Origin: Bacteroidales bacterium
GTDB taxonomy: Bacteria; Bacteroidota; Bacteroidia; Bacteroidales; WRLA01
Length of the DNA stretch: 64,000 nucleotides
NCBI GenBank assembly: GCA_965230045.1
Contig: OZ245940.1
Span: 8,058 to 72,057, forward strand
Reading direction: 5' to 3'
Under the pieces are notes generated by a model. The model ran no database searches and had not been told where the DNA came from. It saw nothing but the letters and a program-made list of their open reading frames with translations. Positions 5,764 to 54,024 of this stretch are shown in pieces. Position 1 is the stretch's first letter; the number at the start of each line of letters is the position of its first letter. The position numbers and the translations under genes were made by a program.

Positions 5764-8190
5764 ATGCTCCAGACCTATATCAAACTGTCCGTGCGAAGTT
5801 TTCTGAAGCACAAATTTTTCACCTTCATCAATATTTTTGGACTGGCACTGGGAATTGCTGCCAGTCTTTTGATTTTTCAATATTCATGGCGTGAGCTTTC
5901 TTATGACGACTGGCACGAAAAATCGGATCAGATGTACCGCATCCGGCTCGACCGCTACAGTCAGGGCGAACTCGCCGAAGAAATGGCCACTGCGCCGGCA
6001 GCCTTTCCCTATGAGCTGCAAGACAACTATCCGGAAGTGCTTGATTTTACAGGTTTAAGCAATTTTCAATTGGAAGGATTGCTTGGTAAGGACGAGAAAA
6101 AATACCGCATCGATGGAAAGGCTTTTTACTCCACACCTTCCTTTTTTAAGATGTTCGACCATGAACTGGTAAAAGGAGATGCCGAAAGCTGCCTGAAAGA
6201 GCGCAATGCTGTTGTGCTTTCGGAAGAACTGGCGCAGCGCTTTTTCGGAGATGAAGACCCCATCGGGAAAAGCTTGCTGTGGAATAACCGTATCCCCATG
6301 ATGGTAACCGGTGTTTTCAAAAAAGATGTGCGCCCTTCGCACCTAAATTTTGAACTGCTCTACAGCTGGGAAACCATGGTTGGGATTTATGGCGATGCCA
6401 TGTACCAGCAATGGTTTATGGATGTGCCGCTCTGCTATTTCGTGTTTCAGGAAGGCACAGATATGGAAGGATTTGACAAAAAAATTGACCAGATGATCGA
6501 CAAGCGGCTTGGCGATGAACTGGCCAGGAGGAATGAAGCCATGGAGTTTTTTATCCAGCCTTTGGAGAGCATCCATTTGCATTCCAATTTCCCGGGGGAA
6601 GCAGAGAAAAACGGAAACTATAAATCGGTTTATTTCCTGCTGGTTATCTCGTTAATGATCATGCTCATCGCCTGGTTAAACTACATAAACCTGGCTACAT
6701 CGCGCTCCCTCGAGCGTGCCCGTGAAGTGGGGCTGCGCAAGGTAAGCGGCGCCACACGCCCGCAAATAATGGCTCAGTTTTTAGCCGAATCGTTGATTAT
6801 CAATTTGATTGCTGTAGCGTTGGGCCTGATTCTGGTTGCTGTGCTTTACCCCTGGTTCAATGAGTTTACCGGCCTTGAAGTTACCTTATTGCTCTGGCAG
6901 CAACCCATGTTCTGGCTGATTTTTGCCCTGGTAGTTCTGTGCGGTTCCATTCTTTCCGGGCTGTATCCTGCATTTGTAATCTCATCTTTCGAGCCTTCCA
7001 GCATTTTCCGATTAAAGAAAAAGGCCTCCTCGCGCGGCTTTAGTTTCCGTAAGGTGATGATTGTAATACAATTTGTTATTACCATGGTGCTTATTACCGG
7101 TACAATGACCGTTTACCGCCAGTTGAACTTTATGCGCTCACAGGACCGGGGCATCGAAACCGAACAAACATTGATCGTTAAATCGCCATCGGTCATCGAT
7201 TCCACGTTTTATCGTAAACTTGATGGTTTTCAAAATGAACTGCTCAATGAGAGCGAAGTAGAAAAAATCTGTGGCAGTTTCTTTGTGCCAGGCGATGAGG
7301 TTTGGTTTACGCTGCCTTTTACCAATGTTAAAGATCCGGATCAAAGGGGTTCAAGGACGCTTTGTGCGAATTTCACCAACGATCAGTTTGTGCCCTTTTA
7401 CGATTTAAAACTGCTTGGCGGAAGGAATTTTGACCGGAACATCCAGGAAGACCGTATTGCCTATATGCTCAGCGAAACAGCCATGCGCCTCATGGGACAT
7501 GACAAGCCTGAGGATGTCATCAATACGGAAATCAGGAACGACCTTTGGGATCGCGTTGGGAAATGCGTGGGCGTTTTTGAGGATTATCATCAGGAATCGC
7601 TCAAGGAAGATTACGCTCCCCTTGTTTTGGTGCATTTCCGGCATCCACGTTATGTAAAGAATTATTCAATCAAATTGAAAACCAATGATATGCATGCTTT
7701 GATTGGAATGATTCAGGAAAAATTTGAATCCTTTTTCCCGGGCAACCTCTTTGAGTATTATTTCCTGGATCAACATTATGATGAGCAATATAAAGATGAT
7801 GTACGTTTTGGAAAAACTTTTGGTTTGTTTGCCTTTTTTGCCATCATTGTGGCCAGTTTAGGACTCTTTGCCCTGGCGCTTTATTTTACATTACAGCGTA
7901 CCCGCGAGATTGCCATCCGGAAAGTGCATGGCGCCAGCGAAAGCAAGATTATGCGCCTGCTGAGTTTTGAATACATCAAGCTCTTCCTGCTCTCTGCAAT
8001 TGTTGCCTTCCCCCTGGCTTTCTTTATCATGAACCGCTGGCTGGATAATTTTGCCTATCGCATCAGTTTCGATTTATGGATGGTGCTCCTGCCATCACTC
8101 TTGATGCTGGTAGTGATTTTCCTCGCTATTGGATATCAGGTATATCATTCATCGAGGGCAAAGCCTGTGGATGCATTGAAATATGAGTAA
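5764..8190 (+). CDS. FtsX/MacB-type ABC transporter permease
   Basis: 808 aa. N-terminal TM (FTFINIFGLALGIAASLLIF), a large periplasmic domain, two FtsX 4-TM modules, and the tail ...KPVDALKYE. Confidence 0.9.
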   Translation: MLQTYIKLSVRSFLKHKFFTFINIFGLALGIAASLLIFQYSWRELSYDDWHEKSDQMYRIRLDRYSQGELAEEMATAPAAFPYELQDNYPEVLDFTGLSNFQLEGLLGKDEKKYRIDGKAFYSTPSFFKMFDHELVKGDAESCLKERNAVVLSEELAQRFFGDEDPIGKSLLWNNRIPMMVTGVFKKDVRPSHLNFELLYSWETMVGIYGDAMYQQWFMDVPLCYFVFQEGTDMEGFDKKIDQMIDKRLGDELARRNEAMEFFIQPLESIHLHSNFPGEAEKNGNYKSVYFLLVISLMIMLIAWLNYINLATSRSLERAREVGLRKVSGATRPQIMAQFLAESLIINLIAVALGLILVAVLYPWFNEFTGLEVTLLLWQQPMFWLIFALVVLCGSILSGLYPAFVISSFEPSSIFRLKKKASSRGFSFRKVMIVIQFVITMVLITGTMTVYRQLNFMRSQDRGIETEQTLIVKSPSVIDSTFYRKLDGFQNELLNESEVEKICGSFFVPGDEVWFTLPFTNVKDPDQRGSRTLCANFTNDQFVPFYDLKLLGGRNFDRNIQEDRIAYMLSETAMRLMGHDKPEDVINTEIRNDLWDRVGKCVGVFEDYHQESLKEDYAPLVLVHFRHPRYVKNYSIKLKTNDMHALIGMIQEKFESFFPGNLFEYYFLDQHYDEQYKDDVRFGKTFGLFAFFAIIVASLGLFALALYFTLQRTREIAIRKVHGASESKIMRLLSFEYIKLFLLSAIVAFPLAFFIMNRWLDNFAYRISFDLWMVLLPSLLMLVVIFLAIGYQVYHSSRAKPVDALKYE

Positions 8191-8192
8191 AT

Positions 8193-8317
8193 GGTTTCTG
8201 TCCAGAATGTCCGATCTCAGCGTTATTTCATTTGCTGGAAACAGTCATTTACTCTAGTAAACTCCTTGTTTCCAGCAAATGAAATGCCTCGACCTCGAAC
8301 ATTTTGAACCAGAAACC
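8193..8317. repeat. 125-bp palindromic intergenic element
   Basis: GGTTTCTG...CAGAAACC termini. The inner arms CATTTGCTGGAAACAG / CTTGTTTCCAGCAAATG form a long hairpin. Confidence 0.6.
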
Positions 8318-8385
8318 CGACTCCATGGCCGGACTCTGAATGGTTTTTGTATTCATCCGATGACTGAAAAGTTTACATTTTGATT

Positions 8386-8411
8386 AGCCCGGTTTATTCG
8401 GGCTTTTTTTT
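8386..8411 (+). terminator. Rho-independent terminator downstream of the FtsX gene
   Basis: AGCCCGgtttatTCGGGCT stem-loop followed by a T8 run. Confidence 0.7.
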
Positions 8412-8489
8412 GCTATTCATGCATTGTTTTCTACTTAAAAATTGCATAATTTTTTGTTCATAATTACAAATTGAGTAATTTAGAACAAT

Positions 8490-9527
8490 ATGAAGAAGAG
8501 AAAGCATATAAATCCTTTGCCAATTATTGATTATAGCGGATTTAACCCAAAGCCTGGCTGTATTCCTTTTGCTAAAAAGCATGAATATTTTGTGGTGACC
8601 AATATATCTATCACAGGAGATGCACCAAAGGACTTTATAAGGTACTATCAGTTTAAAAGAGACACTATTGTTCGAAAATCAAATCCTGATACATGGAAAT
8701 TATATTTGGCAAAACACGGTCATAAGCATTACCCAATGGAAGCTATTACAGAGTATTTGCTTAATCAAATCGGAGAAGTATTGGGGTTTAATATGGCTAA
8801 ATCGGGCTTGTTATGGTTAGGGAATCAGATTAGGTTTATATCAGAATATTTTATTGAAAGACAGGATGTTCAGTATTTGGATCATGGAGCTGACTTATAT
8901 GCAGGATATTTGCATGATAGAGAATTTGTTGAAGAAATAGAGAATACCAAACAGTCTGCCACGTTTTTCACAGTACAATTTACTGAAGATACGCTCAAAC
9001 ATTTTTTCCCAAGGAATTATAAAGAGCTAATGGGAGAATTTCTAAAATTATTAATTTTTGACGCTTTAATAGGAAATAATGATAGGCATTATTATAATTG
9101 GGGCATTGTTCGTCATATTGAAGGAACAGATAAGCCCTATTTCTCTCCAATTTATGATACTGCAAGAGGATTGTTCTGGAATGATCATGAAGAAAAAATC
9201 AGGGAGATTACTGGTAACAAAAATCGATTTGAAACGTTTATAAGAAAGTATGCCGAAGGGAGTTGCCCAAAAATTGGATGGGAAGATGCAGGGAGATTAA
9301 ATCATTTTGAATTAGTCGAAAAAATTGCCACCATGCGGGAGTATTCGGAAAATTGCACACAAATTAAGAACATTTGTGATACCAGCATATTAGATCGGTT
9401 AGATAAATTGATAGATGTTGATTTCGGAGACCTTATTAGTACTGAAAGAAAGATTATTATCAAGGAATGCTTAAAGTACAGACATAACAGAATACGAGAA
9501 ATATTTTTAGCTTTGCAACATGATTAA
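8490..9527 (+). CDS. HipA C-terminal-domain-like Ser/Thr kinase (putative toxin)
   Basis: ...LLIFDALIGNNDRHYYNWGIV...FSPIYDTARG matches the HipA-family catalytic D-x-H-x-x-N loop and the downstream YD metal-binding motif. It is 345 aa, about the size of HipT-type kinases that lack the HipA N-subdomain. Confidence 0.7.
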   Translation: MKKRKHINPLPIIDYSGFNPKPGCIPFAKKHEYFVVTNISITGDAPKDFIRYYQFKRDTIVRKSNPDTWKLYLAKHGHKHYPMEAITEYLLNQIGEVLGFNMAKSGLLWLGNQIRFISEYFIERQDVQYLDHGADLYAGYLHDREFVEEIENTKQSATFFTVQFTEDTLKHFFPRNYKELMGEFLKLLIFDALIGNNDRHYYNWGIVRHIEGTDKPYFSPIYDTARGLFWNDHEEKIREITGNKNRFETFIRKYAEGSCPKIGWEDAGRLNHFELVEKIATMREYSENCTQIKNICDTSILDRLDKLIDVDFGDLISTERKIIIKECLKYRHNRIREIFLALQHD

Positions 9528-9906
9528 AAAAAATAAACATAGCATTTGGAATAAAGAAGGACAGGCTTATGAGCCTGATTCATCTGCCATGAAAAGCGTG
9601 TTTTATTTAAAGTACAAAAATAATATTATAGGCACTTTGGTTTATGATAATCAGTGGGTGTTTAAATATTCAGAAAATTTCGTCAATTTTAATATCCAAC
9701 CTATAACGGATTTTCCAAATCCACAAAAAACTTATACCAGCGATGAATTATGGCCTTTTTTCAGGACACGAATTCCTGCTATAAATCAGCCTTTTCAACT
9801 CAAGAAAATTCAAAAAGCAAAGGTGAGTAAAAATGATTCGGTTGGCCTTTTACGGCTTTTTGGATCAGAAACAATTACGAACCCTTTTAAATTGCTGCCG
9901 GCTTAA
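9520..9906 (+). CDS. HipA N-terminal-subdomain-like / HipS-like small protein
   Basis: 128 aa. The pattern ...IIGTLVYDNQWVFKYSENF...ELWPFFRTRIP...NDSVGLLRLFGSETITNPFKL resembles the Couple_hipA N-terminal subdomain. The start overlaps the kinase stop by 8 nt (ATGATTAA). Confidence 0.55.
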   Translation: MIKKNKHSIWNKEGQAYEPDSSAMKSVFYLKYKNNIIGTLVYDNQWVFKYSENFVNFNIQPITDFPNPQKTYTSDELWPFFRTRIPAINQPFQLKKIQKAKVSKNDSVGLLRLFGSETITNPFKLLPA

Positions 9907-9909
9907 GCA

Positions 9910-11166
9910 TTATTTTGTTCTTGCTTTATTCCTTCCAGCCAAATAAAGAGGGCTCAACAGCAACATCAGCCCGGATACAATAATAATGGCTGTACCCGGT
10001 CCCCAGAGGTCGGCAAAAAAACCAATCAATGGCGCCAGCAAAGCAGCAACAACCGTTTCCGTTTGTCCGGCAGCCGATAAGGCCGTAGCCATGATGTCTT
10101 TTTCCAGTTTGTCTGATACATGGCTTATACCCATGGGCTTACGGATGTTTTCCACAATCATGATAATCATATAAACAAAAATTGCAGCCAGTTTAAAACC
10201 GGACAAATACAGAAAACCCGAAATTATGCCTGCACCAAGCCCGGCCAGTATGGAAATATTCAGTGGAATGCCGACATTGCGGAAACGGGAAGCAATTTTG
10301 CCCGAATAAAGCGATGCACGCGAAGTGAGCATATACAAAACGAAATAAGTAATCCCGATAATCGCAGCTGTTTTTTTCCCGGCATCATACCCGGCCAGAA
10401 ATGCTACGGGCGCAGTAATTGCCAGGCTTTTGATCAGCGGTTGCAGATAATCGCGTATCGCTTTATAATAACCTGTATAAACGCTGAGGTTCAGCATGGC
10501 GCGCAGTAGTTCCATGCGTTTAAATGATACGATAAAGTCTTTTCCTACAGCTTTGAATTTCTTTTTCAGGGCGCTAAATTTAAAATTCGTTTTGCCCTCA
10601 TCAAATGCCGGCGGATAAGAATAGAGCAGTATCAGGTCGATGAGATAAGGTATGATGGAAAACAGGAAGATCAAATCATAATTTCCTGTAATAAAAATGA
10701 TAAGTGCTGCAATGAGCGCCGAAAAAGCCGACCCGGCCTGCGACCACGAACGGGTGTGGCCGTAATAACTGATTTTCTGATCTTCCCAGCCTTTCATCTT
10801 CAAATATTGCAGAATCATGGCTTTATGCGTGCCCGAACGGAACGCATCGGCAAAGGCAAAAAGAACCACAGCCGCCGCAAAACCCCAGTAAGATTTTGAA
10901 ATATAATAAACCAGAAAGCTCAGGATATACAAAACAAAAGCCATCAGCATACTCCGCCTTCGTCCTACAGCATCCGCAAAAGCTCCGGCCGGGATTTCAA
11001 AAATGTTTCTCAGGATTTCGCGCAAAGTATAAAGGCTCCCGATTTCTACATAGCTCAAGCCCCGGCCCAGCAAAAAAAGGATATAAAAAGGCTCAAAAAA
11101 CCTCAGGTTCTTAAAAAAGCCATAAAGGCTGAACTTATAATATTGCCTGTCTTTTTGAAAACGCAT
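9910..11166 (-). CDS. MFS-type transporter
   Basis: 418 aa with about 12 predicted hydrophobic helices. The loop motif ...GAFADAVGRRRSM after TM2 is typical of MFS proteins. Confidence 0.75.
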   Translation of the reverse strand: MRFQKDRQYYKFSLYGFFKNLRFFEPFYILFLLGRGLSYVEIGSLYTLREILRNIFEIPAGAFADAVGRRRSMLMAFVLYILSFLVYYISKSYWGFAAAVVLFAFADAFRSGTHKAMILQYLKMKGWEDQKISYYGHTRSWSQAGSAFSALIAALIIFITGNYDLIFLFSIIPYLIDLILLYSYPPAFDEGKTNFKFSALKKKFKAVGKDFIVSFKRMELLRAMLNLSVYTGYYKAIRDYLQPLIKSLAITAPVAFLAGYDAGKKTAAIIGITYFVLYMLTSRASLYSGKIASRFRNVGIPLNISILAGLGAGIISGFLYLSGFKLAAIFVYMIIMIVENIRKPMGISHVSDKLEKDIMATALSAAGQTETVVAALLAPLIGFFADLWGPGTAIIIVSGLMLLLSPLYLAGRNKARTK

Positions 11167-11475
11167 AAGCTAATGGCAAAGATAATTGATTGGTACAGCT
11201 GCAAAAGAACAATATTAATGTTTTTAAGCGGTTATTTTTTGGAGAACAATATGTTTATGCCATTGTTAATTTTATTGGTACTACACGGAATTTTGTGAAA
11301 TGGAAAAATTAGGAATCTGTGAAAGTCTTTGGCTATTTGTTAAAAAGTACTGCAAACTCACTGCATAGCTCTAATAACAATCAAATGTTTTCAAGCTGCC
11401 TGCGAAATGCCGAGTAGAATAATTTCATAAAAAACCGAAACGGAAAAGACATTAAAAACTTTAATACACAAACAT

Positions 11476-12636
11476 ATGAACAACTTCCAGCTTTATAATC
11501 CGGTGCGCCTTGCTTTTGGCAAAGGCCAAATCAGCAATATGGGCAAAATGTTGCCCAAAGGTGCACGCATCCTCATCACCTATGGTGGAGGCAGCATCAA
11601 GCGTAATGGCGTATATGATGCCGTGGTGGAACAACTGAAAGGTTTTGAATATTTTGAATTTGGGGGCATTGAGCCAAATCCGCATTTTGAAACGCTGATG
11701 AAAGCCGTGGAGCTGATTAAAAAAGAAAAGCTCGATTTTATCCTTGCCGTTGGTGGCGGATCGGTAATCGACGGAAGTAAATTTGTAGCACTCGCCGCGA
11801 ATTTTGAAGGTGATGACCCCTGGGATATCCTGAGCAAATCAGCGCCTATAAAATCGGCAATGCCATTGGGCGCTGTGCTGACACTTGCCGCTACAGGTTC
11901 GGAAATGAACGGAAACTTTGTGGTAACTAAAGCCGAAACCCGCGAAAAACTGGCACGGGGCTCTGAACTGGTGTATCCGGTTTTTTCCATTCTCGACCCG
12001 GAATATACCTATACCCTTCCTATGCGACAGGTAGCCAATGGCATTATCGACAGCTATGTGCACACCATGGAACAGTACCTGACTTACAAAAACGGAGCCG
12101 ATCTTCAGGACAGCCTGGCCGAAGGCATTCTGCGCAGCCTGATTGCTGAAGGTCCAAAGGCAATGCAAGCCGATGAACCTGTTTATGAAAACCGGGAAAA
12201 ACTCATGTGGGCAGCAACACTGGCGCTCAACGGACTGCTGAGCTGCGGAACTATTGGCGACTGGGCCACACATATGATCGGACATGAGCTTACAGCACTT
12301 CATGGCCTCGACCATGCCGTAACTTTGGCCATTGTAATGCCGGGTGTACTCGAATTTACCATGAAAAAGCGTAAGGAGAAATTACTGCAATATGCCACAA
12401 CAGTGTGGAATATCACGGATGGTGACGATGAAAGCCGATGCAAACAGGCCATTCAGAAAACCGAAGAGTTTTTCAATGCATTGGGCGTAAAAACCCGTTT
12501 GGGCGATTATGGCATAATGGAAGACACCATTGATGAAATTCTGAAACGTTTCCGCGACCGAGGATTTGAATTTATTGGCGGCGCAGGCGATATCCGCGCA
12601 GAGGATGTGGAAGAAATCCTGAAATCGAGATTGTAA
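11476..12636 (+). CDS. Iron-containing (group III) alcohol dehydrogenase, YqhD/butanol-dehydrogenase-like
   Basis: ...ILITYGGGSIKRNG...AVGGGSVIDGSKF... and His-rich metal-site motifs (...HMIGHELTALHGLDH...). 386 aa. Confidence 0.85.
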   Translation: MNNFQLYNPVRLAFGKGQISNMGKMLPKGARILITYGGGSIKRNGVYDAVVEQLKGFEYFEFGGIEPNPHFETLMKAVELIKKEKLDFILAVGGGSVIDGSKFVALAANFEGDDPWDILSKSAPIKSAMPLGAVLTLAATGSEMNGNFVVTKAETREKLARGSELVYPVFSILDPEYTYTLPMRQVANGIIDSYVHTMEQYLTYKNGADLQDSLAEGILRSLIAEGPKAMQADEPVYENREKLMWAATLALNGLLSCGTIGDWATHMIGHELTALHGLDHAVTLAIVMPGVLEFTMKKRKEKLLQYATTVWNITDGDDESRCKQAIQKTEEFFNALGVKTRLGDYGIMEDTIDEILKRFRDRGFEFIGGAGDIRAEDVEEILKSRL

Positions 12637-41496: not shown

Positions 41497-41565
41497 GTAA
41501 GCCTTCAGCAAAAGGCATATTGCACAAGCTTTTAAAGCTTCCGTTCTTTGCTGCAAAAAAGCAAT

Positions 41566-41853
41566 ATGCAAAAAGAACAAAGAAGAGCAGAGATGAAAAC
41601 ACTGGTGGATCAATGGCATACCAGTGGCCAAAGCAAAAGATCCTTTGCCGAATCACACAAAATCTGCTATCACACTTTCCTTTATTGGTATCATAAATTT
41701 GAACAGGAAGAAAGCTTGCCTGATGGCCATGGGTTCATTGAGCTTTCCGGGACTCCAGCTGCAGGGATTATCATCCGTTATCCCAATGGTATCGAGCTCA
41801 ACCTTCCGGGCAATGTGCCCTTGTCCTATCTCAAATCGCTCACCGGCCAATAA
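41566..41853 (+). CDS. tnpA: IS66 accessory protein TnpA
   Basis: Small HTH-like protein in the first position of the IS66 operon. Its stop overlaps the tnpB start (TAATG). Confidence 0.7.
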   Translation: MQKEQRRAEMKTLVDQWHTSGQSKRSFAESHKICYHTFLYWYHKFEQEESLPDGHGFIELSGTPAAGIIIRYPNGIELNLPGNVPLSYLKSLTGQ

Positions 41854-42218
41854 TGTTCAGCTTAACAGCCAGCCGCTATTACCTGTACCGCCAGCCCACC
41901 GATATGCGCAAGAGCTTTGATGGGCTGTATGGCATTGTGCGCAACAAACTGGACAAAAACCCAATGAGCGGTGATGTTTTCCTGTTCATCAACAAAAAGC
42001 GCGACCGCATAAAACTGCTGCGCTGGGAAAGCGGAGGTTTTGTGCTGTTCTACAAAAGGCTCGAAAAAGGCACTTTTCACCTGCCGGACACATCTGCTGC
42101 GCACGCCTCCCACCAGCTGATCGACTACCCTGAACTTGTAATGATAATCAATGGTATTTCCATGAAAAATGCAAGGAAATACCCACGTTTTTTCCCACAT
42201 GAAAATGTTGGTAAATAG
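41853..42218 (+). CDS. tnpB: IS66 Orf2 (TnpB)
   Basis: ...YLYRQPTDMRKSFDGLYGIV...GDVFLFINKKRDRIKLLRWESGGFVLFYKRLEKGTF is the hallmark IS66 TnpB pattern. Confidence 0.85.
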   Translation: MFSLTASRYYLYRQPTDMRKSFDGLYGIVRNKLDKNPMSGDVFLFINKKRDRIKLLRWESGGFVLFYKRLEKGTFHLPDTSAAHASHQLIDYPELVMIINGISMKNARKYPRFFPHENVGK

Positions 42219-42265
42219 CGCTTAAAATATAGTCAGCCAAGAGGTTACTTCCGTATCTTTGCCTC

Positions 42266-43720
42266 ATGGCAAGTCAGGAAAATATAACTATATCAAAAGC
42301 GGAATATGATGCAATGCAACAGAAAATATTCCTGCTTCAGCATGAACTTGTCCAGTTGAGGCGTGCGATCTATGGAGCCAAAAGCGAACGGCATATCGCG
42401 GCAGACCCCAACCAGGGCGTGCTTTTTGACGTGCCTGCACAGGAGAAAGAGCCGGAAAAGGAGCAGATCAGCTATACGCGCAATAAAAAGCAGTCCAAAA
42501 AACAGCCCGTGCGCTTAGAACTGCCCGCCCACCTGCCGCGCCATGAAATCATCATCGAACCCCAAAACCTGCCCAAAGGCGCCCATAGGGTCAACGTAAA
42601 AATCACCGAAGTACTTGATTATGTGCCCGGGACTTTTCGTGTGATCCGTTATATACGTCCTTATTATGCCGTAGCAGGCCAGGGCGAAAGCACCCAAATG
42701 ATTTGTGCAGAACTACCTTCGCGCGCCTTGTTCAAAAGCAATGCCTCAGAAGGCCTGCTCTCTTATGTGACTGTCAGCAAATTTGTTGACCACCTGCCAT
42801 TCTACCGCCTTGTCAAGATGTTCAAGCGCATGGGGATCGAAATAGCCGAATCAACAATAAACGGCTGGTTTAGCGGGGTTTGCAGATTGCTTGAGCCGCT
42901 TTACGATGCCCTGAAAAAAGAAATCATGAGGACCGATTACCTGATGGCAGACGAAACGCCTATAAAGGTATTGACCAAAGACAAGCCCGGGGCATCGCAC
43001 AAAGGGTATCACTGGGTTTATTACGACCCGCTTAAAAAACTGGCCCTGTTCGATTACCGGAAAGGCCGCGGGCGGGAAGGCCCGGATGAGATGCTGGAAA
43101 ACTATAGTGGATATTTGCAAACCGATGGCTACACCGCTTACGACAACCTAAAAAACAAAGCCGAAATCACCCAATTGGCCTGCATGGCGCATGCACGCAG
43201 GTATTTTGAGAAAGCCAAGGACAATGATGCTGCACGCAGTGAATATGCGCTGGGGCAGATAAGAAAACTGTATGCCATTGAACGTCAGGCAAGTGAGCAA
43301 GAGCTACAGCCGGAGGAGGTCAAAGCATTGCGGCAAAAGGAATCAATGCCCATATTGAACGAAATGGAAAGCTGGCTTAAGGAAGAAGTTTATAAAGTAG
43401 CGCCCAAAAGCGCAATCGGCAAAGCCATAGCTTACAGCCTGAAATTATGGGGGCGCCTGATCCGTTATATTGAAGACGGAAGGCTGCGCATTGACAACAA
43501 CCTGGTTGAAAACAGCATCAGGCCGGTAGCCATAGGGCGCAAGAATTACCTGTTTGCGGGTTCGCACAATGCAGCCCAGCACGCGGCTATGATCTACTCC
43601 TTTTTTGCCAGCTGCAAAATCCAAAATGTCGAACCCTTCGAGTGGCTCAAGCAAACATTAGAAAAAATCCAGGAACACCCAGCCAACAAGCTCCATCAAC
43701 TCCTGCCCGGACAGATTTAA
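42266..43720 (+). CDS. tnpC: IS66-family DDE transposase (TnpC)
   Basis: N-terminal coiled-coil/zipper, ...YLMADETPIKVL...HKGYHWVY...GYLQTDGYTAYD...CMAHARRYF...RIDNNLVENSIRPVAIGRKNYLFAGS. Confidence 0.9.
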   Translation: MASQENITISKAEYDAMQQKIFLLQHELVQLRRAIYGAKSERHIAADPNQGVLFDVPAQEKEPEKEQISYTRNKKQSKKQPVRLELPAHLPRHEIIIEPQNLPKGAHRVNVKITEVLDYVPGTFRVIRYIRPYYAVAGQGESTQMICAELPSRALFKSNASEGLLSYVTVSKFVDHLPFYRLVKMFKRMGIEIAESTINGWFSGVCRLLEPLYDALKKEIMRTDYLMADETPIKVLTKDKPGASHKGYHWVYYDPLKKLALFDYRKGRGREGPDEMLENYSGYLQTDGYTAYDNLKNKAEITQLACMAHARRYFEKAKDNDAARSEYALGQIRKLYAIERQASEQELQPEEVKALRQKESMPILNEMESWLKEEVYKVAPKSAIGKAIAYSLKLWGRLIRYIEDGRLRIDNNLVENSIRPVAIGRKNYLFAGSHNAAQHAAMIYSFFASCKIQNVEPFEWLKQTLEKIQEHPANKLHQLLPGQI

Positions 43721-43771
43721 AACATTATCCGGTTATATGCAAGATGCTGTTCGCCGTAGGCTTACAAAAAT

Positions 43772-46411: not shown

Positions 46412-47584
46412 ATGAATGTGGATTTGCTATTAAAAAAAGTGTACGAATCATTGTCGTCTGTAAATGAGGTAAGTGTTCATGGATTTTATTCTGATACTTC
46501 GGGAATCTCCCTTTTCCTTTTTTATTATTCCTTAATGCTAAATGATGAAAAGTGTTACAATAAAGCGGTAATGCTTCTTGAAAAAACTTTGATGTCTTAT
46601 TACCAAACCAGAATTGCGCCTTCTGACATTGCCAGATTGGGTTGGCTTTTACTAAATCTTGATAGTAATGATTTTTTAGAGACTGATATTAATGAATTGA
46701 TTGATAAGAGTGTGAATAAAGTTTTATTCGAAAAAGTTTTGGATTATCTAAAAAATGACAATTACGACTTCTTGCATGGTGCACTTGGTATCATTCAGTA
46801 CTTTTTGAGCAAAAATGATATAGAAAGTCGGTTCTATGTTTCAGAATTTGTTGATGAATTTGCAGAAAAGGCAGAAAGGGCAAAAGATAATGAGCTGAAA
46901 TGGCTGTCAACATTAGACATCAGAACAAAAACAAAAGGCTATAATATTAGCATGTCGCACGGTCTGGCAAGCATTATCGCTATGCTGAGCAAGATATACA
47001 AACAGGGAATTAATCAGAATAAAACAAAGTACTTACTTGAAGGAGCCATGAATTATCTGCTGCAACAAAAATTGCCCAATGGCAAGTATATTTCTGTTTT
47101 CCCAAACTTTGCCATAGAAAGCATGAAAAATTTGGCCCCGAGCCGTCTTGCCTGGTGTTATGGCGATCTTGGCATTTCTGTAGCAATATGGCATGCCTCA
47201 CAAGCCCTGGGGCGAAAGGATTGGGAAGAAGAAGCCATTAGAATTCTACTCCATTCTGCCCGTCGAAGGGATTTGAAAGAAAACAGCGTAATAGATGCAG
47301 GGCTTTGCCATGGTACAGCTGGCATTGCACATATTTATAACCGTATGTATGGCTATACGGGTGTTGAAGAACTAAAAGAAGCTTCTGAATACTGGTTCGG
47401 CCAAACCCTTAAAATGGCACGCTTTGAGGATGGTTTGGCGGGTTACAAGGCCTGGCATGGGCTTGATAAAGGATGGAAAAATGAACCGGGACTACTGGAA
47501 GGAATCGCAGGCATTGGTCTTGCCATGATTTCTGCTGTTTCGGATATAGAACCTGCATGGGACGAATGTTTGTTGTTAAGTTAG
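46412..47584 (+). CDS. lanC: LanC-like lanthipeptide cyclase 3
   Basis: Near-identical to lanC1, with the same HG / WCYG / CHG motifs. Confidence 0.85.
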   Translation: MNVDLLLKKVYESLSSVNEVSVHGFYSDTSGISLFLFYYSLMLNDEKCYNKAVMLLEKTLMSYYQTRIAPSDIARLGWLLLNLDSNDFLETDINELIDKSVNKVLFEKVLDYLKNDNYDFLHGALGIIQYFLSKNDIESRFYVSEFVDEFAEKAERAKDNELKWLSTLDIRTKTKGYNISMSHGLASIIAMLSKIYKQGINQNKTKYLLEGAMNYLLQQKLPNGKYISVFPNFAIESMKNLAPSRLAWCYGDLGISVAIWHASQALGRKDWEEEAIRILLHSARRRDLKENSVIDAGLCHGTAGIAHIYNRMYGYTGVEELKEASEYWFGQTLKMARFEDGLAGYKAWHGLDKGWKNEPGLLEGIAGIGLAMISAVSDIEPAWDECLLLS

Positions 47585-47590
47585 ATTTGT

Positions 47591-48490
47591 ATGGATGATA
47601 TCATGCTTTATAAGCCTTTTAATAAGTACATTTTGCGTACCCCCACCTTTCCTTTAAGTTTTGTTTGTGAGTTAACTTCAGGGGATGAAATTAGAGAAGC
47701 AGAGTTAAAACATATTTTTGCTGATCCTCTTGTTCAAGAGGCTGTATTTATCGCCTCACAACCTCTGTATCATGAAATGGAAAAATGGCTACAGGACGAT
47801 ACGGCAAAGGACAGAAAAGGGAAAAGAAAGAATGAAAAACTTAAAGAAAGCCTGCTGCGTTATTTGTTTCGTATGTCCACGCGATGCACTCCTTTTGGCA
47901 TGTTTGCAGGCTTTTCCGCAGGATCTTTTAGTGATATTAGTAAAATCGAGCTTAAATCTAAAATAGATTGTGTTTGTCATACCCGTTTGGATATGAATTA
48001 TTTGTGTGCTTTGGCATTTGATTTATCAAAAAACAGAGATATTAGAAAGCATCTAAAATTTTCACCAAACTCAAGTATATATAAAATCGGCAATCAAATC
48101 AGATATGTCGAGTATTACTATGTAAACAGTCATCGTAAACATCATATTGTTGCTGTCGATAATTCGGAATATATTACTGCTGTATTGCAAAAGGCCATTA
48201 AAGGAGAAAGGATTGACAATCTTTCCGAAATACTGGTGGATGAAGAGATTTCAATGAATGATGCCGTATCATTTGTTAACGAAATGATTGACGAACAACT
48301 CCTGATAAGTGAATTGGAACCACGTGTTACAGGAGCTGATTTTCTTGTTCAAATAATAGAAATCCTTTCCAGGATGCCCCAAGATTCCGGGATTTCTACC
48401 GTACTAAAAAACCTTGTACAAATTTACAAGGAATTAAATCAACTCAAACAGCTACCCCCGTTCCCGCGCGTGTCCTCACGCGTGGCTTAG
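47591..48490 (+). pseudogene. lanB: Lanthipeptide dehydratase LanB, N-terminal about 290 codons only (truncated)
   Basis: ...YKPFNKYILRTPTFPL...LLRYLFRMSTRCTPFGMFAGFSAG...HTRLDMNYL... resembles the start of the Lant_dehydr_N domain. Homology stops where the hairpin element begins (about 48450). Full-length glutamylation domains are several-fold longer. Confidence 0.7.
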
Positions 48491-48842
48491 CAAGTCAGGC
48501 TAAGCAAACCCGTATATTCCGTAAGTCACAAAAGCAGCTTTCTTTTAACAGCTCTTGTTGCCTTGATATTTTAATGCGCATAAAAAAAGTTTTTGATGCG
48601 CATGAAAAATTATTTCTACGCCTGTTATCATCAATTTAAATACTTGAAGTAATAGCAATAAAGTGATTTCACAAAAAATCAGGTACATTCACCAAAATCC
48701 AGTCGAAGAGGGCCTGGTGTTTTATCCTGAGGATTATTTGTACTTAGTGCATTGGATTATGCAGGAAAAAAAGGGATACTCGAAGATGTTATTGTGGTTG
48801 ATATTTAAGCAGTACCGCGCGTGAGGACACGCGCGGTAGCTG
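48449..48842 (+). mobile_element. Remnant of a REP-flanked Y1 (RAYT/IS200-like) transposase: two inverted hairpins around a degraded gene fragment
   Basis: The hairpins CCGCGCGTG-tcct-CACGCGTGG (48464-48485) and CCGCGCGTG-agga-CACGCGCGG (48815-48836) are in inverted orientation. Outer CAGCTACC / GGTAGCTG motifs flank them. Between them, 48651-48808 translates (with one frameshift) to ...VISQKIRYIHQNPVEEGLVFYPEDY / ..LSALDYAGKKGILEDVIVVDI*, which is the typical C-terminus of Y1_Tnp-type transposases. Confidence 0.5.
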
Positions 48843-48857
48843 GGGGAAACACTTTTA

Positions 48858-49355
48858 ATGCAACTCCAAGAATCTATTGAAACTCTTAGAACAGCTATTG
48901 ATGGCTGGGAAAATAAGTATATTTTACGGTCACCTATTGATGGTAGATGCGTTTTCATTCAATACTGGAGGAAGAATCAAATTGTTGCTTCCAATGAAAA
49001 AGTTATGGCAATTGTACCCGTTCATGGTAAAGACATAATTGGCAGTCTTCAAATACCAACGCATGGCTTTGGAAAAGTAAAGCAGGGGCAAGAGGTTATC
49101 ATAAGGCTTAATAATTATCCTTATATGGAATTTGGAGTGCTCAAAGGGTTCATTAAAAATATTTCAACTATTCCAAATAAGGATTTCTATTATGCTGAAG
49201 TTGATTCTCTTGATGGAATGACGACGACATATGGTATTGAAATAGAGTGTTCACAAAGTTTGTCTGGCACTGCAGAAATAATAACAGAGGATACCAGGCT
49301 GCTTTATCGTTTAATACGTCCTGTTAAGTCTTTAGTTGATAGATGGATAGGTTAG
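48858..49355 (+). pseudogene. HlyD-family membrane-fusion protein, C-terminal fragment only
   Basis: ...LRSPIDGRCVFIQYW...VMAIVP...IPTHGFGKVKQGQEVIIRLNNYPYMEFGVLKGFIKNIS...LSGTAEIITEDTRLLYRLIRP is the beta-barrel/C-terminal part of HlyD_3-type proteins. The frame opens only at the TAG inside the right hairpin. Confidence 0.7.
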
Positions 49356-49419
49356 TCATAGTGCTAGTGCAGCATTATATTTTGTAATAAGCTGAGTTAT
49401 TTCCTAATATCTTTGCCCC

Positions 49420-50115
49420 ATGCAAACAAAAATTCTTTTTCAGGACGACCATATTATCGTGGTGCATAAGCCCGCAGGCTTGCCTGTGCACAAAAACCAG
49501 CATATGCCCAAAGATGCGGATTACCTTTTGAAACAGGTAAATCATTTAACAGGCTCGGAGCTGTTTAATGTCCATCGCCTCGACCAGCCTACTTCCGGTT
49601 TGGTGGTTTTGGCGCGCACACAGGATGCGGCACGGCATTTTGCCAAAGAATTTTCCGAAAAGCAGGTGGAAAAAAAGTACCTCACTTTGGTGCATGGAAC
49701 GCTGGATGCGGAGGGTTCATACGATTTTCGAGTGCACGACAAAAGCAAAAAGCGCAAAACAGATGCTTTGACCCATTATCGTTGCATGGGGCAAGGGAAG
49801 ATCCCGCTGGCATTCCGCGATGATGCAGAATTGCAGGTCAGCCTGGCCGAAGTCAGCCCGCAAACGGGACGATGGCACCAAATCCGGCAGCATTTTGGTG
49901 GCACCGGGCATTACATCATTGGAGATAATCAGCACGGCTCGCGCCAGCTCAACCGGGCTTTAAAAGAATTTCTGGAACAGGATCAGTTGGAACTTATGTT
50001 GCATGCTTCATCGCTCTCGTTTCGTCATCCGGAAAATATGGAGCTGATGCATTTTGAAGATGCTGTTCCCGGTTATTTTCAGGAGATGCTGGAAGGGGTT
50101 GGGATAAGGATCTGA
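49420..50115 (+). CDS. RluA-family pseudouridine synthase (TruC/RluA-like)
   Basis: ...IIVVHKPAGLPVH...VHRLDQPTSGLVVLA (catalytic Asp motif) ...GRWHQIRQH.... Confidence 0.85.
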   Translation: MQTKILFQDDHIIVVHKPAGLPVHKNQHMPKDADYLLKQVNHLTGSELFNVHRLDQPTSGLVVLARTQDAARHFAKEFSEKQVEKKYLTLVHGTLDAEGSYDFRVHDKSKKRKTDALTHYRCMGQGKIPLAFRDDAELQVSLAEVSPQTGRWHQIRQHFGGTGHYIIGDNQHGSRQLNRALKEFLEQDQLELMLHASSLSFRHPENMELMHFEDAVPGYFQEMLEGVGIRI

Positions 50116-50196
50116 TCTTTTTTTGAAAAGGAGGAAACCGAAGGCACATAATTCACAAGTTTATTTTCCATAAAGGCCAGGAATTGGCACAAAAAA

Positions 50197-50222
50197 AAGG
50201 GCGCCTGTTGCGGGACGCCCTT
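50197..50222 (-). terminator. Terminator of the decarboxylase operon
   Basis: AAGGGCG-N12-CGCCCTT. On the - strand it is followed by a T8-9 run. Confidence 0.7.
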
Positions 50223-50245
50223 ACACCAAACAATAAACTCACATA

Positions 50246-51583
50246 TTACAACAAAAAGCTCAGCAGGATACCTGCGGCAACAGCGCTACCAATAACACCG
50301 GAAACATTCGGCGCCATAGCGTGCATTAGCAGGTGGTTGGTCGGATCTTCTTTTAAGCCCTCGTTCTGAACAACGCGTGCACTGTCCGGAACGGCCGATA
50401 CGCCCGCTGCACCAACCAGTGGGTTTATCTTATTATCTTTTTTGAGGAATACATTCATAAACTTAGCGAATAAAATCCCTCCTGAAGTAGCAATCATAAA
50501 TGAAAGAGCTCCCAAAATGAAAATCATAATGGATTGTGGCGTCAGGAAAACATCGGCCTGTGTACTGGCCCCAACGGTAAGCCCGAGCAAAATCGTAACG
50601 ATATCGATCAGAGCATTACGTGCTGTATCGGCCAAACGTTTGGTCACGCCGCTTTCCTTCAAAATATTTCCAAAGAACAACATACCCAAAAGAGGCAATG
50701 AACTCGGAGATATAAACGCAGTAAGTATGAGTCCTATTATAGGGAAAATGATTTTTTCTGTTTTGGAAACAGCTCTTGGCGGCCTCATACGGATGACACG
50801 TTCCTTTTTGCTGGTCAGTAATTTCATGATCGGTGGCTGGATAACAGGCACCAGAGCCATATACGAATAAGCAGCAATGGCGATTGGGCCAATCAGGTTT
50901 TGGGTTTGCAGGCCGTTGATAATGCCCCCGTTCGCCAATTTGGATGAAAGGAAAATCGCTGTAGGGCCATCGGCACCACCGATAATACCAATTGAACCGG
51001 CTTCCGGAAGGTTAAAACCGAGGAAAAGCGCACCGATCAGGGTAAGGAAAATACCTACCTGTGCAGCCGCTCCAAGCAGCATCAGGCGTGGATTGGAAAT
51101 CAGGGATGAGAAATCGGTCATCGCCCCAATCCCAAGAAAAATAAGGGGCGGATAAATCCCTTTCACTACGCCGTAGTATAAATAGTTCATTACACTACCT
51201 TCCTGATAGATACCAAGTTGCAGGTTGATATCCGGATCGTTGAAGAAGGGGATGTTACCGATGATAATCCCCGTACCGATCGGAATCAGCAGCAGGGGTT
51301 CATAATCAAAGCGGATAGCGAGGTAGATAAAAAACAGACCTACCAGAATCATGATAAAGTGCCCCCAGGTAATATTCCTGAAACCTGAATAACGATAAAA
51401 TTTGTATAATCCCTGAAAAGTAAGCGATTCATTAAAAGGCTTGGAATTATCGTTTTGCTGAACGACTTCCTGTTGATTATCTGTTTGGGTGGTTTTGCCG
51501 CTCAGGTCATCTGCAAAGACTGCTGTCAGGATACTGAGCACGGCAATAATCCCAAAAATTGTCAAAAACTTTCTAAGTGCCAT
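50246..51583 (-). CDS. Na+-translocating decarboxylase beta subunit (MmdB/OadB family)
   Basis: 445-aa polytopic membrane protein with characteristic ...GIGAMTDFS... and ...GAAGVSAVP... segments. It sits in an operon with carboxyltransferase, biotin carrier and OadG-like genes. Confidence 0.85.
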   Translation of the reverse strand: MALRKFLTIFGIIAVLSILTAVFADDLSGKTTQTDNQQEVVQQNDNSKPFNESLTFQGLYKFYRYSGFRNITWGHFIMILVGLFFIYLAIRFDYEPLLLIPIGTGIIIGNIPFFNDPDINLQLGIYQEGSVMNYLYYGVVKGIYPPLIFLGIGAMTDFSSLISNPRLMLLGAAAQVGIFLTLIGALFLGFNLPEAGSIGIIGGADGPTAIFLSSKLANGGIINGLQTQNLIGPIAIAAYSYMALVPVIQPPIMKLLTSKKERVIRMRPPRAVSKTEKIIFPIIGLILTAFISPSSLPLLGMLFFGNILKESGVTKRLADTARNALIDIVTILLGLTVGASTQADVFLTPQSIMIFILGALSFMIATSGGILFAKFMNVFLKKDNKINPLVGAAGVSAVPDSARVVQNEGLKEDPTNHLLMHAMAPNVSGVIGSAVAAGILLSFLL

Positions 51584-51617
51584 TTTTGTTCGGCTTTTAA
51601 AGGTTCATAAAAAGTGC

Positions 51618-52046
51618 TTACACCAATTCTACCAAAGGAGCTTCCTGAAGGACGTTATCCCCTACGGTGACTTTAATAGAACCCACAGTTCCGTCGCGTT
51701 CGGCCAAAACAACATTCTCCATTTTCATGGCTTCATACATTAAAAGCTTATCGCCTTTTTTTACCTCATCGCCTTCTTTTACAAAGATATTGAGGATCAC
51801 ACCGGGAAGCGGGCATTTAATGATTAAGGGGCCACCGGCAGGCTTTGCATCGGGCAGTTTGTGGCTGCCTTTGGGGTTAACAACAGCCGAACGGACCAAT
51901 GTAGGCGTTTTGCTTGTTTTGATTTCTTTGTGCAACTCCACTTTGTAAGAAGAACCGTTTACATCCATTTTGATGATGTTCTTTTCAAAGCCTTTGATTT
52001 CCACTTCGTACTGGTTGCCACGTACAGTGAATTTATATTTTCTCAT
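51618..52046 (-). CDS. Biotin carboxyl carrier subunit of the decarboxylase
   Basis: C-terminal biotinyl domain with the motif YEAMKMEN. Confidence 0.85.
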   Translation of the reverse strand: MRKYKFTVRGNQYEVEIKGFEKNIIKMDVNGSSYKVELHKEIKTSKTPTLVRSAVVNPKGSHKLPDAKPAGGPLIIKCPLPGVILNIFVKEGDEVKKGDKLLMYEAMKMENVVLAERDGTVGSIKVTVGDNVLQEAPLVELV

Positions 52047-52080
52047 CAGTAATGATCTTTATATGACTGATTAATAAATT

Positions 52081-52446
52081 TTATTGTTGCTTGTTCAGGT
52101 TGCGCATGCCGTATATCTTGGAACTCCATGGTGAGTAGTTCCGCGAAACACGTTTTATGGTCAGGATATTGCTTTCCTCATCGTGCATTTCATTGAAATA
52201 CATAAAGATTGCTGCGCTAATGGCTGCATTCTCTTCTGATGAAACCGATAATTCCTGATTTGCACACTCTTTCCCTTCCTTTTTAAGCTTTTTCCTGATA
52301 TTGATATTCAACACTTTAGGAACATTAGAAAAAACAAAGAACAGAAGTACGAGTGCGCTGAAAACAATTGAATAACCAACCAGGGTAATCACAAGGCCCT
52401 GGTTCAGGTTATGGGTAAGTTCAGCCGACATTTCTAATAAAACCAT
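52081..52446 (-). CDS. OadG-family small membrane subunit
   Basis: 121 aa with a single N-terminal TM (LVITLVGYSIVFSALVLLFFVF), located between the carboxyltransferase and the carrier. Confidence 0.65.
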   Translation of the reverse strand: MVLLEMSAELTHNLNQGLVITLVGYSIVFSALVLLFFVFSNVPKVLNINIRKKLKKEGKECANQELSVSSEENAAISAAIFMYFNEMHDEESNILTIKRVSRNYSPWSSKIYGMRNLNKQQ

Positions 52447-52464
52447 AGTACAATTATTTAATGT

Positions 52465-54024
52465 TTAAAGCGGAATATTGGAATGTTTTTTCGGCGGATT
52501 GGTATCCTTTTTCGTAGCCAGGGTGCGCAATGCGCGGCAAATCCTGAAACGGGTATTCCGTGGTTCAATTACATCATCGATATAGCCGTATTTTGCTGCT
52601 TCGTAGGGGTTGGCAAATTTATCGCGGTATTCTTCCTCTTTCTGAGCAATATATTTGGCTTGTTCTTCCGGATCTTCAATTTCTTTGATTTTCCGTCCTT
52701 CAAGCACTTCAATAGCTCCTTTGGGCCCCATCACGGCAATTTCTGCTGATGGCCATGCATAATTAATATCGCCACGGAGCTGTTTGGAACTCATCACATC
52801 GTGTGCGCCACCATAAGATTTGCGCAGGGTAAGGGTAACTTTTGGCACTGTAGCTTCACCATAGGCAAACATCAGTTTTGCACCGTGTGTAATAATTCCG
52901 CCATATTCCTGCTTGCTGCCGGGAAGGAAACCGGGAACATCAACCAAAGTGATAATGGGCAAATTAAAGGCATCACAGAAACGTACAAAACGTGCTGCTT
53001 TACGCGAGGCTTCTATATCGAGCACACCGGCGAGGAAATTGGGCTGGTTGGCAACAATACCCACGGCAGCGCCATTAAATTTAGCAAAGCCCACCACAAT
53101 GTTTTTGGCATAATGACGGTGGAATTCGAGGAATTCTTCGTGGTCAACGATATGATAAATCACATCTTTGATATCGTAAGGTTTATTTGGATTGTCAGGA
53201 ATAATGTCATTGAGCTCATCGGCCATACGGTCAATCGGGTCAGTACACTCGGTCAATGGCGGTTCTTCGAGGCAGTTTTGAGGGAGGTATTCCAAAGTTT
53301 TGCGAATAAGCATAATACCTTCTTCTTCGGAGTCCGATTTAAAATGTGCCACACCTGATTTGGAAGCGTGTACATTTGCGCCACCAAGATCTTCGGTAGT
53401 GATATCCTCACCGGTAACCGTTTTCGTAACCTTAGGGCCGGTAACGAACATATAACTGGTTTGGTCGTTCATGATGATCACGTCGGTAAGGGCCGGCGAA
53501 TAAACGGCGCCACCAGCGCAGGGGCCAAAAATGGCTGAAATCTGAGGGATTACCCCACTGGCCATAATGTTGCGCTGGAAGATTTCCGCATAACCTGCAA
53601 GGCTGTTTACGCCTTCCTGGATACGTGCACCACCGCTATCGTTGATACCGATTAGGGGAGCACCCACTTTCATGGCCTGATCCATAACTTTACAGATTTT
53701 CTGTGCAAAAGTTTCGGAAAGGGAACCTCCGAAAACGGTGAAATCCTGTGCAAAAACATATACCACGCGTCCGTCGATAGTACCATGACCGGTTACTACG
53801 CCATCGCCGAGGAATTTTTGTTTTTCCAGGCCAAAATTTGTGCAACGGTGCGACATGAACATATCGTACTCTTCAAAACTTCCTTCATCGAGGAGCATTT
53901 CGATACGCTCGCGGGCAGTGTATTTGCCCTTTTTGTGCTGAGAATCGATACGTTTCTGGCCGCCACCGAGTTTCGCTTCTTCACGGAGCTCAATAAGCTG
54001 TTTGATTTTTTCCTGACTGCTCAT
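52465..54024 (-). CDS. Methylmalonyl-CoA decarboxylase alpha subunit / acyl-CoA carboxyltransferase
   Basis: 519 aa. ...[20 protein letters not shown]...GGARIQEGV...[12 protein letters not shown]... is the carboxyl_transferase pattern. Confidence 0.9.

Follow-up and report, generated by a model that had tools for sequence, protein, structure and literature searches.

The stretch of DNA analysed in this study (the window; 64,000 nucleotides) corresponds to positions 8058-72057 of one 5.14-Mb contig of the genome G000. Five genomes of the same genus, G000-G004, were compared; those with records other than G000 are MAG assemblies. Between 47591 and 49355, the window carries the remains of lanB and hlyD, two genes of a class I lanthipeptide operon, and between them a short composite of repeats and a transposase gene fragment:

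47591-48458, plus strand: 5' remnant of lanB, codons 1-289 of 744, 97.4% identical to lanB of G002
48449-48458, plus strand: native lanB sequence CAGCTACCCC at the left breakpoint, present in the intact lanB of G002
48455-48485, plus strand: left end (L-REP), consisting of a C-run, a GTTC foot and the hairpin 48464-48485; this 37-nt end is identical at G000 1198540-1198576
48486-48652, plus strand: truncated X module, an intergenic repeat, 76-91% identical to other L-REP+X copies
48652-48654, no strand: internal X/RAYT joint GAAGTAATAGCAAT, with microhomology of at most 1-2 nt
48654-48808, plus strand: RAYT pseudogene fragment, codons 135-185 plus stop, 95% identical in DNA to the intact gene
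48809-48846, plus strand: right end (R-REP), consisting of the hairpin 48815-48836 and the foot TAGCTGGGGG at 48837-48846; alike downstream of the intact RAYT gene
48846-49355, plus strand: 3' remnant of hlyD, codons 265-433 of 433, 94.5% identical to G002 from 48846

The orthologous operon of G002 served as the reference for the lost segment. Its gene order is the end of lanC, lanB, a Lant_dehydr_C gene, a C39-ABC exporter, hlyD and rluA, after which the genes of the window follow. The four genes concerned are:

lanB, 744 aa, complete Lant_dehydr_N
elimination-domain gene, 328 aa, Lant_dehydr_C
exporter, 737 aa, C39-peptidase ABC
hlyD, 433 aa, HlyD adaptor

With a glutamylation domain, an elimination domain and an exporter, all of them complete, the G002 cluster is of the split-LanB class I type. 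Since both lanB and hlyD are full-length in G002, homologous clusters are not naturally short at this place. The G002 LanB (744-746 aa) is 99% identical to the LanB remnant of the window. When the two loci were aligned, window 47153-48458 matched positions 2-1307 of the G002 locus at 97.4% identity, and window 48846-54000 matched positions 6563-11716 at 94.5% identity, so that the two genomes are collinear for kilobases on both sides of the junction. Homology to the intact lanB stops at 48458 and homology to hlyD resumes at 48846, close to where a first reading of this DNA, made from the letters without database searches (the sequence-only reading), had placed both limits. Compared with G002, exactly 5,255 bp are missing from the window (G002:C2:1352307-1357561), and 387 bp (48459-48845) occupy their place. 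The lost DNA encodes LanB codons 290-744, the elimination gene, the exporter and HlyD codons 1-264 (the 5' 61%). The multi-kilobase loss of most of lanB, the exporter and the 5' half of hlyD that had been postulated was thus confirmed, with the elimination gene to be added to it. The lost coding sequences were sought across the rest of the G000 genome and were not found; the loss therefore represents a deletion, and inversion or translocation of the missing genes was ruled out.

What is left of the cluster is fragmentary. The open reading frame of the lanB remnant (47591-48490) runs into the inserted sequence and ends at a TAG stop (48488-48490); it covers only positions 1-242 of the 649 in the Pfam Lant_dehydr_N profile and is the sole Lant_dehydr_N match in the G000 genome. 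The hlyD remnant is a 165-aa open reading frame matching TIGR01843 at positions 257-413 of 422, and its first in-frame ATG lies at 48858. With only LanB residues 1-289 left, the window cluster is not a complete class I lanthipeptide cluster, and the 5,255-bp deletion renders it non-functional. In biological terms the deletion is ordinary gene-cluster decay: one 5.3-kb event took the only dehydratase, elimination domain and exporter, and a locus with three cassettes makes no product. The same cluster has suffered a second, independent injury. An IS66-family element (window 41498-43765) that is absent from G002 splits a lanC copy, and the alignments flanking it overlap by ~9 bp in G002 at that site (target duplication).

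The sequence-only reading had described two inverted 22-nt GC-rich hairpins at the borders of the inserted sequence, and both were found at its coordinates. The hairpins at 48464-48485 (CCGCGCGTGTCCTCACGCGTGG) and 48815-48836 are inverted copies that are complementary at 21 of 22 positions, and the inverted repeat as a whole reaches 31 nt (48455-48485/48815-48845). When folded as ssDNA, they gave -11.6 and -17.6 kcal/mol, respectively (z = -3.7 and -6.9), and the hairpin motif had 0 matches in dinucleotide shuffles of the window. A search of 48300-49000 against Rfam returned nothing near threshold. Outside the hairpins, motifs had been noted at both ends, CAGCTACC being the left one. The right-end foot GGTAGCTG reads as CAGCTACC on the opposite strand; the left copy, however, is native lanB sequence that is present in G002, and it does not belong to the element. 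In the 6.6-kb G002 operon, CAGCTACC occurs once, exactly at the left breakpoint. At that joint the CCCC of CAGCTACCCC overlaps the terminal C-run of the element, which amounts to a 4-nt microhomology; at the right joint, base-by-base comparison with G002 revealed a 1-nt G overlap.

The sequence between the hairpins had been taken as a whole for the remnant of a Y1 transposase gene. This holds for its right part, 48654-48808, but not for its left part, the X module. Window 48654-48847 is 95% identical to the last 195 bp of an intact RAYT unit elsewhere in the genome (G000 1197921-1198115), right hairpin included, and tblastn with the intact 185-aa protein recovered the fragment. A 1-nt deletion near 48743 shifts its frame. 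It retains the catalytic-tyrosine motif YIHQNP without the HUH motif, so that no complete HUH-Y1 core stands in one open frame. The PF01797 search that had been proposed for this fragment (48 aa) gave no match, because the Pfam Y1_Tnp model covers only the HUH core. It was identified instead by aligning its DNA with the intact gene and through the NCBIfam model NF047646, which it matches at positions 118-146 of 146 (E = 1.3e-5, sub-threshold). On the left, the intact RAYT unit has the same end, without a mismatch over window 48455-48491, and this L-REP end has 15 further L-type copies in G000; the R-REP structure likewise occurs at 8 other R-type sites. The 167-bp segment between them, 48486-48652, does not align to the RAYT gene and, judged from these alignments, is not RAYT-derived. 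The joint between X and RAYT was sought in the five genus genomes, where hits covered positions 1-198 or 200-392 of the query and never both. Exact junction patterns had no match in metagenome contigs and genome contigs.

Nine other copies of X are present in G000, and many in G001-G003; the RAYT/REP family and X are both absent from G004 by similarity search. The common layout is an L-REP, a second small hairpin (GCTTAGC/GCTAAGC), ~60 nt, two to four 22-bp units and ~45 nt. The window copy has the small hairpin at 48485-48505 and two 22-bp units with the palindrome ATGCGCAT at 48565-48608, and it lacks the ATCCAGGAAGACCTTAG with which X continues in other copies. Its identity to the other copies is no more than 76-91%, so its source is unsampled. 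All nine L-REP/X modules of G000 are without an R-REP and lie inside multi-kb mosaic intergenic repeats. Two roles for X were considered and rejected. It could have served a conserved gene downstream as its promoter or leader, but the neighbouring open reading frames differ and orientation is inconsistent; or it could have been the 5' leader with which some RAYT variant naturally begins, but no such full-length copy exists. A looser composite occurs at 2042 kb in G000 and at its G001 orthologue, where an L-REP, X, other repeats, 90 bp of RAYT and an R-REP follow one another. The tandem 22-bp units of X copies each carry the palindrome TTTTCATGCGCATGAAAA, which has no Rfam match, and look like candidate sites for a dimeric DNA-binding protein. 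Two X mosaics of G000 that are 94% identical lie 240 kb apart (1386-1387 kb and 1624-1626 kb). G003 has at one locus (L030, C2:~1118 kb) a single X mosaic whose left flank is orthologous to that at 1387 kb in G000 and whose right flank is orthologous to that at 1625 kb, a difference which, from the arrangement of the flanks, suggests a large rearrangement through recombination between X mosaics.

An intact copy with the same flanking hairpins, which the earlier reading had said should be sought, was located by a whole-genome Y1_Tnp scan of G000. This single intact RAYT gene, 185 aa in length, lies at 1.198 Mb, at G000 1197963-1198517, and is flanked on both sides by the hairpins of the window in inverted orientation (G000 1197932-1198568). 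It scored 93.3 bits against NF047646, NCBIfam 'REP-associated tyrosine transposase' (cut-off 80; positions 4-146 of 146), 41.9 bits against Pfam Y1_Tnp (cut-off 23) and 35.4 bits against the IS200 model NF033573, below the cut-off of 55. A PDB sequence search gave marginal matches to ISDra2-type transposase chains (E ~0.03). The protein has the motifs NHVH (HUH) and YVHQNP (tyrosine), and its W motif is WR, not WQ. The motifs published for subclass 2.6 are NH[LIV]H and YIH[QN]NP (PMC6006769, Table 1), and this TnpA_REP subclass (Quentin et al. 2018, PMC6006769) equals RAYT group 5 (Bertels et al. 2017, PMC5581495). On these motifs and profile scores, the cognate family of the inserted sequence is assigned to the Bacteroidota RAYTs of subclass 2.6 / group 5. 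Subclass 2.6 is found mostly in Bacteroidetes; on either side of its genes stand 'atypical secondary structures', further copies of which are present in the genome (PMC6006769). A scan of species-representative genomes yielded 467 relatives, of which the nearest come from MAGs of uncultured Bacteroidales and Lentimicrobiaceae. Among the best 80 loci, about 60 have the gene bracketed by inverted copies of a hairpin built in the same way as that of the window (CCCC-GCTN-CCGCRCG, loop, CGYGTGG).

Elsewhere in G000, the hairpin does recur, as the sequence-only reading had predicted. It is present at 26 sites, 16 of the L type and 10 of the R type, in about 18 REP-carrying loci over 5.1 Mb; these numbers are low compared with classical REPs. 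The further suggestion that such an enzyme mobilises the many nested palindromes of this genome is borne out for this one low-copy hairpin family only. The window unit is not a REPIN, as its hairpins are 329 nt apart and the spacer is not self-complementary. REPIN-like doublets, in which an R-REP directly follows an L-REP, were observed at 438028-438094, 439460-439522 and 441436-441498 of G000. All three fold as one long hairpin (-29.7 kcal/mol), and the 441-kb doublet is also found at the orthologous site of G002 and hence is not recent. A 105-bp repeat with ~8 copies in G000 lies inside the RAYT gene of both G001 (L023:1228-1332) and G002 (L025:1228-1332), at the same position, and thus the main RAYT copy is broken in G001 and G002 and intact in G000. 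Other RAYT loci of the genus are likewise decayed, by internal deletion and foreign repeats. Another tandem repeat family is built on the 24 nt that adjoin the intact RAYT unit on its right side; these recur at a spacing of 154-186 bp in short arrays (G000:C1:1201935-1202330, 4821093-4821425 and 3378055-3378130). A 1391-aa frame resembling a fused restriction-modification protein (G000:C1:3902231-3906403) contains a mid-inserted Y1_Tnp-like segment (PF01797, E = 1.8e-7) and a low-complexity stretch.

The ends of the element were defined in other genera. Polaribacter sp. HL-MS24 has three ~700-bp copies that are at least 98% identical, and Zhouia amylolytica has two that are 95% identical. All of these end exactly at the left C-run and the right G-run feet and have unrelated flanks; no target duplication was detected at any of them, and the host sequence flanking the Polaribacter insertions has no C-run. 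Near-identical copies with exact shared ends in unrelated surroundings indicate that the family moves as a unit with these canonical termini (5'-CCCC...foot-hairpin ... hairpin-foot...GGGG-3'), which match both joints of the window base for base. Within the genus, the window locus was the only one found at which the family shows a clean empty/filled polymorphism. In an empty-site comparison of G001-G003 with G000, the loci proved to sit in multi-kb mosaic repeats, and the joined flanks of the 1581-kb X copy had no orthologue in the sister genomes. In three genera, the outer half of the R-REP (stem and foot) is partly tandem-duplicated directly after the right end of the unit (G000:C1:2042150-2042230 and 2049925-2050000; L085:1613-1632 in Polaribacter; L064:1608-1627 in Zhouia). 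These partial duplications may have arisen through slippage at the right end, or may be a trace of faulty cleavage and rejoining there.

The orientation of the units was also compared with the direction of replication, as inferred from GC skew (origin near 0.39-0.44 Mb, terminus near 3.04 Mb). The 15 non-doublet units of G000, among them the window copy, all point the same way relative to replication, with the RAYT sense strand on the leading-strand template (G000:C1, in kb: 56.5, 1198, 1386, 1577, 1581, 1626, 1949, 1954, 2042, 2049, 2972, 2991, 3145, 3230 and 4121). When obvious duplicates were counted once, the result was 13 of 13 (two-sided p ~2e-4). The only exceptions are the three palindromic doublets, which lie at the inferred origin. 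Such a strand bias is expected for Y1 enzymes acting on ssDNA at replication forks (PMC6006769).

The analysis established how the junction is built, how much was deleted, which family the element belongs to and that its termini are canonical. We propose, at a probability of roughly 0.6, that 48459-48845 is the defunct remnant of a RAYT unit, chimeric in build and bounded by REPs, and that it took the place of 5,255 bp in a class I lanthipeptide operon. Because both outer joints fall exactly on canonical termini, the endpoints of the deletion appear to have been set by the element and not by a later fill. The earlier suggestion that a RAYT/REP element had either mediated the deletion or filled it afterwards is accordingly narrowed, in that mediation is no more than plausible and later filling is unlikely.

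As to the order of events and the enzymology, the path that we infer is tentative, and we would put it at somewhat below even odds. In a first step, one REP-bounded unit would have inserted in hlyD between codons 264 and 265, creating the present right joint; it would have been mobilised by RAYT in cis or in trans, as ssDNA, in a replication-linked manner and without target duplication. In a second step, a leftward adjacent deletion would have joined the C-run of the unit to the sole CAGCTACCCC of lanB, creating the left joint. In a third, which could have come before or after, the interior of the unit would have decayed, with an X module replacing the gene's 5' portion, a kind of decay also seen at other RAYT loci in the genus. 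In favour of this path, C-runs are rare in the AT-rich operon (CCCC occurs at only 5 places in the 6.6 kb of G002). Moreover, since the Polaribacter flanks have no C-run, a left joint with 4 nt of CCCC overlap looks like the product of a deletion and not of an insertion. The frequent decay of RAYT loci in this genus, and their gain of foreign repeats, would account for the chimeric interior. Against it, the five genus genomes and the metagenome contigs contained no donor of the chimeric unit, X is only 76-91% identical to other copies although the event post-dates a split of ~3-5% divergence, and two CCCC sites nearer to the element were left unused. The lack of a second clean empty/filled pair within the genus also speaks against it.

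The chimeric interior is the point at which a second explanation does better. Two units of the same orientation, an L-REP/X in lanB and a RAYT unit in hlyD, could have inserted separately and then lost ~6 kb between them by illegitimate interior deletion, leaving one L end and one R end; the true deletion joint would then be the X/RAYT joint at 48652/48653. Such a history directly predicts a chimeric joint without counterpart elsewhere, as well as the cutting of both X and RAYT at non-canonical internal points. The equal orientation of the two parts would be expected from the strand bias, and mobile elements already accumulate in the island, as the IS66 copy in lanC (absent from G002) attests. 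However, it requires two rare events within 5 kb, when only ~18 REP loci exist in 5.1 Mb. The nine L-REP/X modules that lack an R-REP offer no evidence of insertion of their own, and the 4-nt CCCC overlap at the left joint is left unexplained. We therefore regard two insertions as unlikely, though as the strongest competitor to the single-unit path.

The position of the left breakpoint on the only CAGCTACC of the operon has a chance of ~1e-3, a figure judged post hoc. From the resemblance of the motif to the right-end foot, the coincidence could hint at recognition of a foot-like motif. Carried further, the deletion itself would be a footprint of RAYT catalysis, in which cleavage at the left foot and at the foot-like CAGCTACCCC was followed by joining in cis, with 5.25 kb looped out. 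We consider this improbable. If it were true, the locus would offer the first in vivo evidence of a subclass 2.6 RAYT moving REP-bounded units, and also the first in vivo evidence of adjacent deletions directed by a foot-like motif.

Replication-based repair would dispense with the transposase: a broken or stalled fork in lanB would have changed template at microhomologies, using CCCC to reach an X copy, moving on to a RAYT copy and returning to hlyD through G, with 5.25 kb lost and two unrelated pieces of repeat copied in. The chimeric insert fits such template switching, as do joint microhomologies of 4, at most 2 and 1 nt, and GC-rich hairpins are plausible stall sites. Copying, however, would need to have begun and ended precisely at the two canonical termini, and no close donor exists (76-91% identity for X, 95% for RAYT), so we hold this explanation to be more doubtful still. 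Least credible is that the deletion came first, for unrelated reasons, and the remnant was inserted later at the joint, or that the assembly is at fault: the genus genomes with records are indeed MAG assemblies, but insertion at the exact 1-bp joint of a prior deletion would be an improbable coincidence, the X/RAYT joint shares no repeat able to mislead an assembler, and collinearity with G002 extends for kilobases to either side.

The element and the cluster can be set against several known systems. The G002 cluster resembles pinensin-type clusters in its split LanB, C39-ABC exporter and HlyD. As in IS-linked decay of biosynthetic gene clusters, the end of a mobile element here forms a deletion joint, in a cluster that was also struck by IS66. 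Adjacent deletions are classically the work of DDE transposases, whereas the window element belongs to the Y1/RAYT type, for which we know of no documented case.

With the published subclass 2.6 / group 5, the family shares a length of ~180 aa, the HUH and tyrosine motifs, and flanking structures that recur in the genome at low copy. It departs from that description in its W motif (WR instead of WQ) and in its flanks, described as 'atypical' and weak for the subclass; here they are strong GC-rich hairpins with C-run feet conserved in many genera. Furthermore, the Polaribacter and Zhouia copies, together with the new-locus remnant of the window, indicate movement as a unit, which to our knowledge has not been attributed to REPtrons in the literature. 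We likewise know of no study of the activity of a subclass 2.6 RAYT. The E. coli REPtron and the Pseudomonas REPINs also have a Y1 HUH gene bracketed by inverted REP hairpins, with REP doublets (here at 438-441 kb of G000) and one intact gene per REP type. Unlike in those systems, only 26 REPs are present instead of hundreds, and fragments of the gene travel with the REPs; in addition, no 5' GTAG foot was found in the register of the E. coli REPtron.

As a member of a known RAYT subclass, the element makes for a useful but incremental finding. Its value lies in G002 and G000 forming a clean before/after pair, in which a REP-bounded unit stands at a new locus with its ends located. This pair, the Polaribacter and Zhouia copies and the strand bias jointly suggest that 'domesticated' RAYTs in Bacteroidota still behave like minimal ssDNA insertion sequences. 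In this respect they resemble the IS200/IS605 elements (IS608, ISDra2), with which they share a minimal unit of ~700 bp, subterminal hairpins, the absence of target duplication, a single Y1 transposase and a strand bias relative to replication. The strand preference of IS608 is apparently opposite to a sense strand on the leading-strand template, and the ends of IS200/IS605 elements are distinct (LE and RE), whereas those of the present family are inverted copies of one hairpin.
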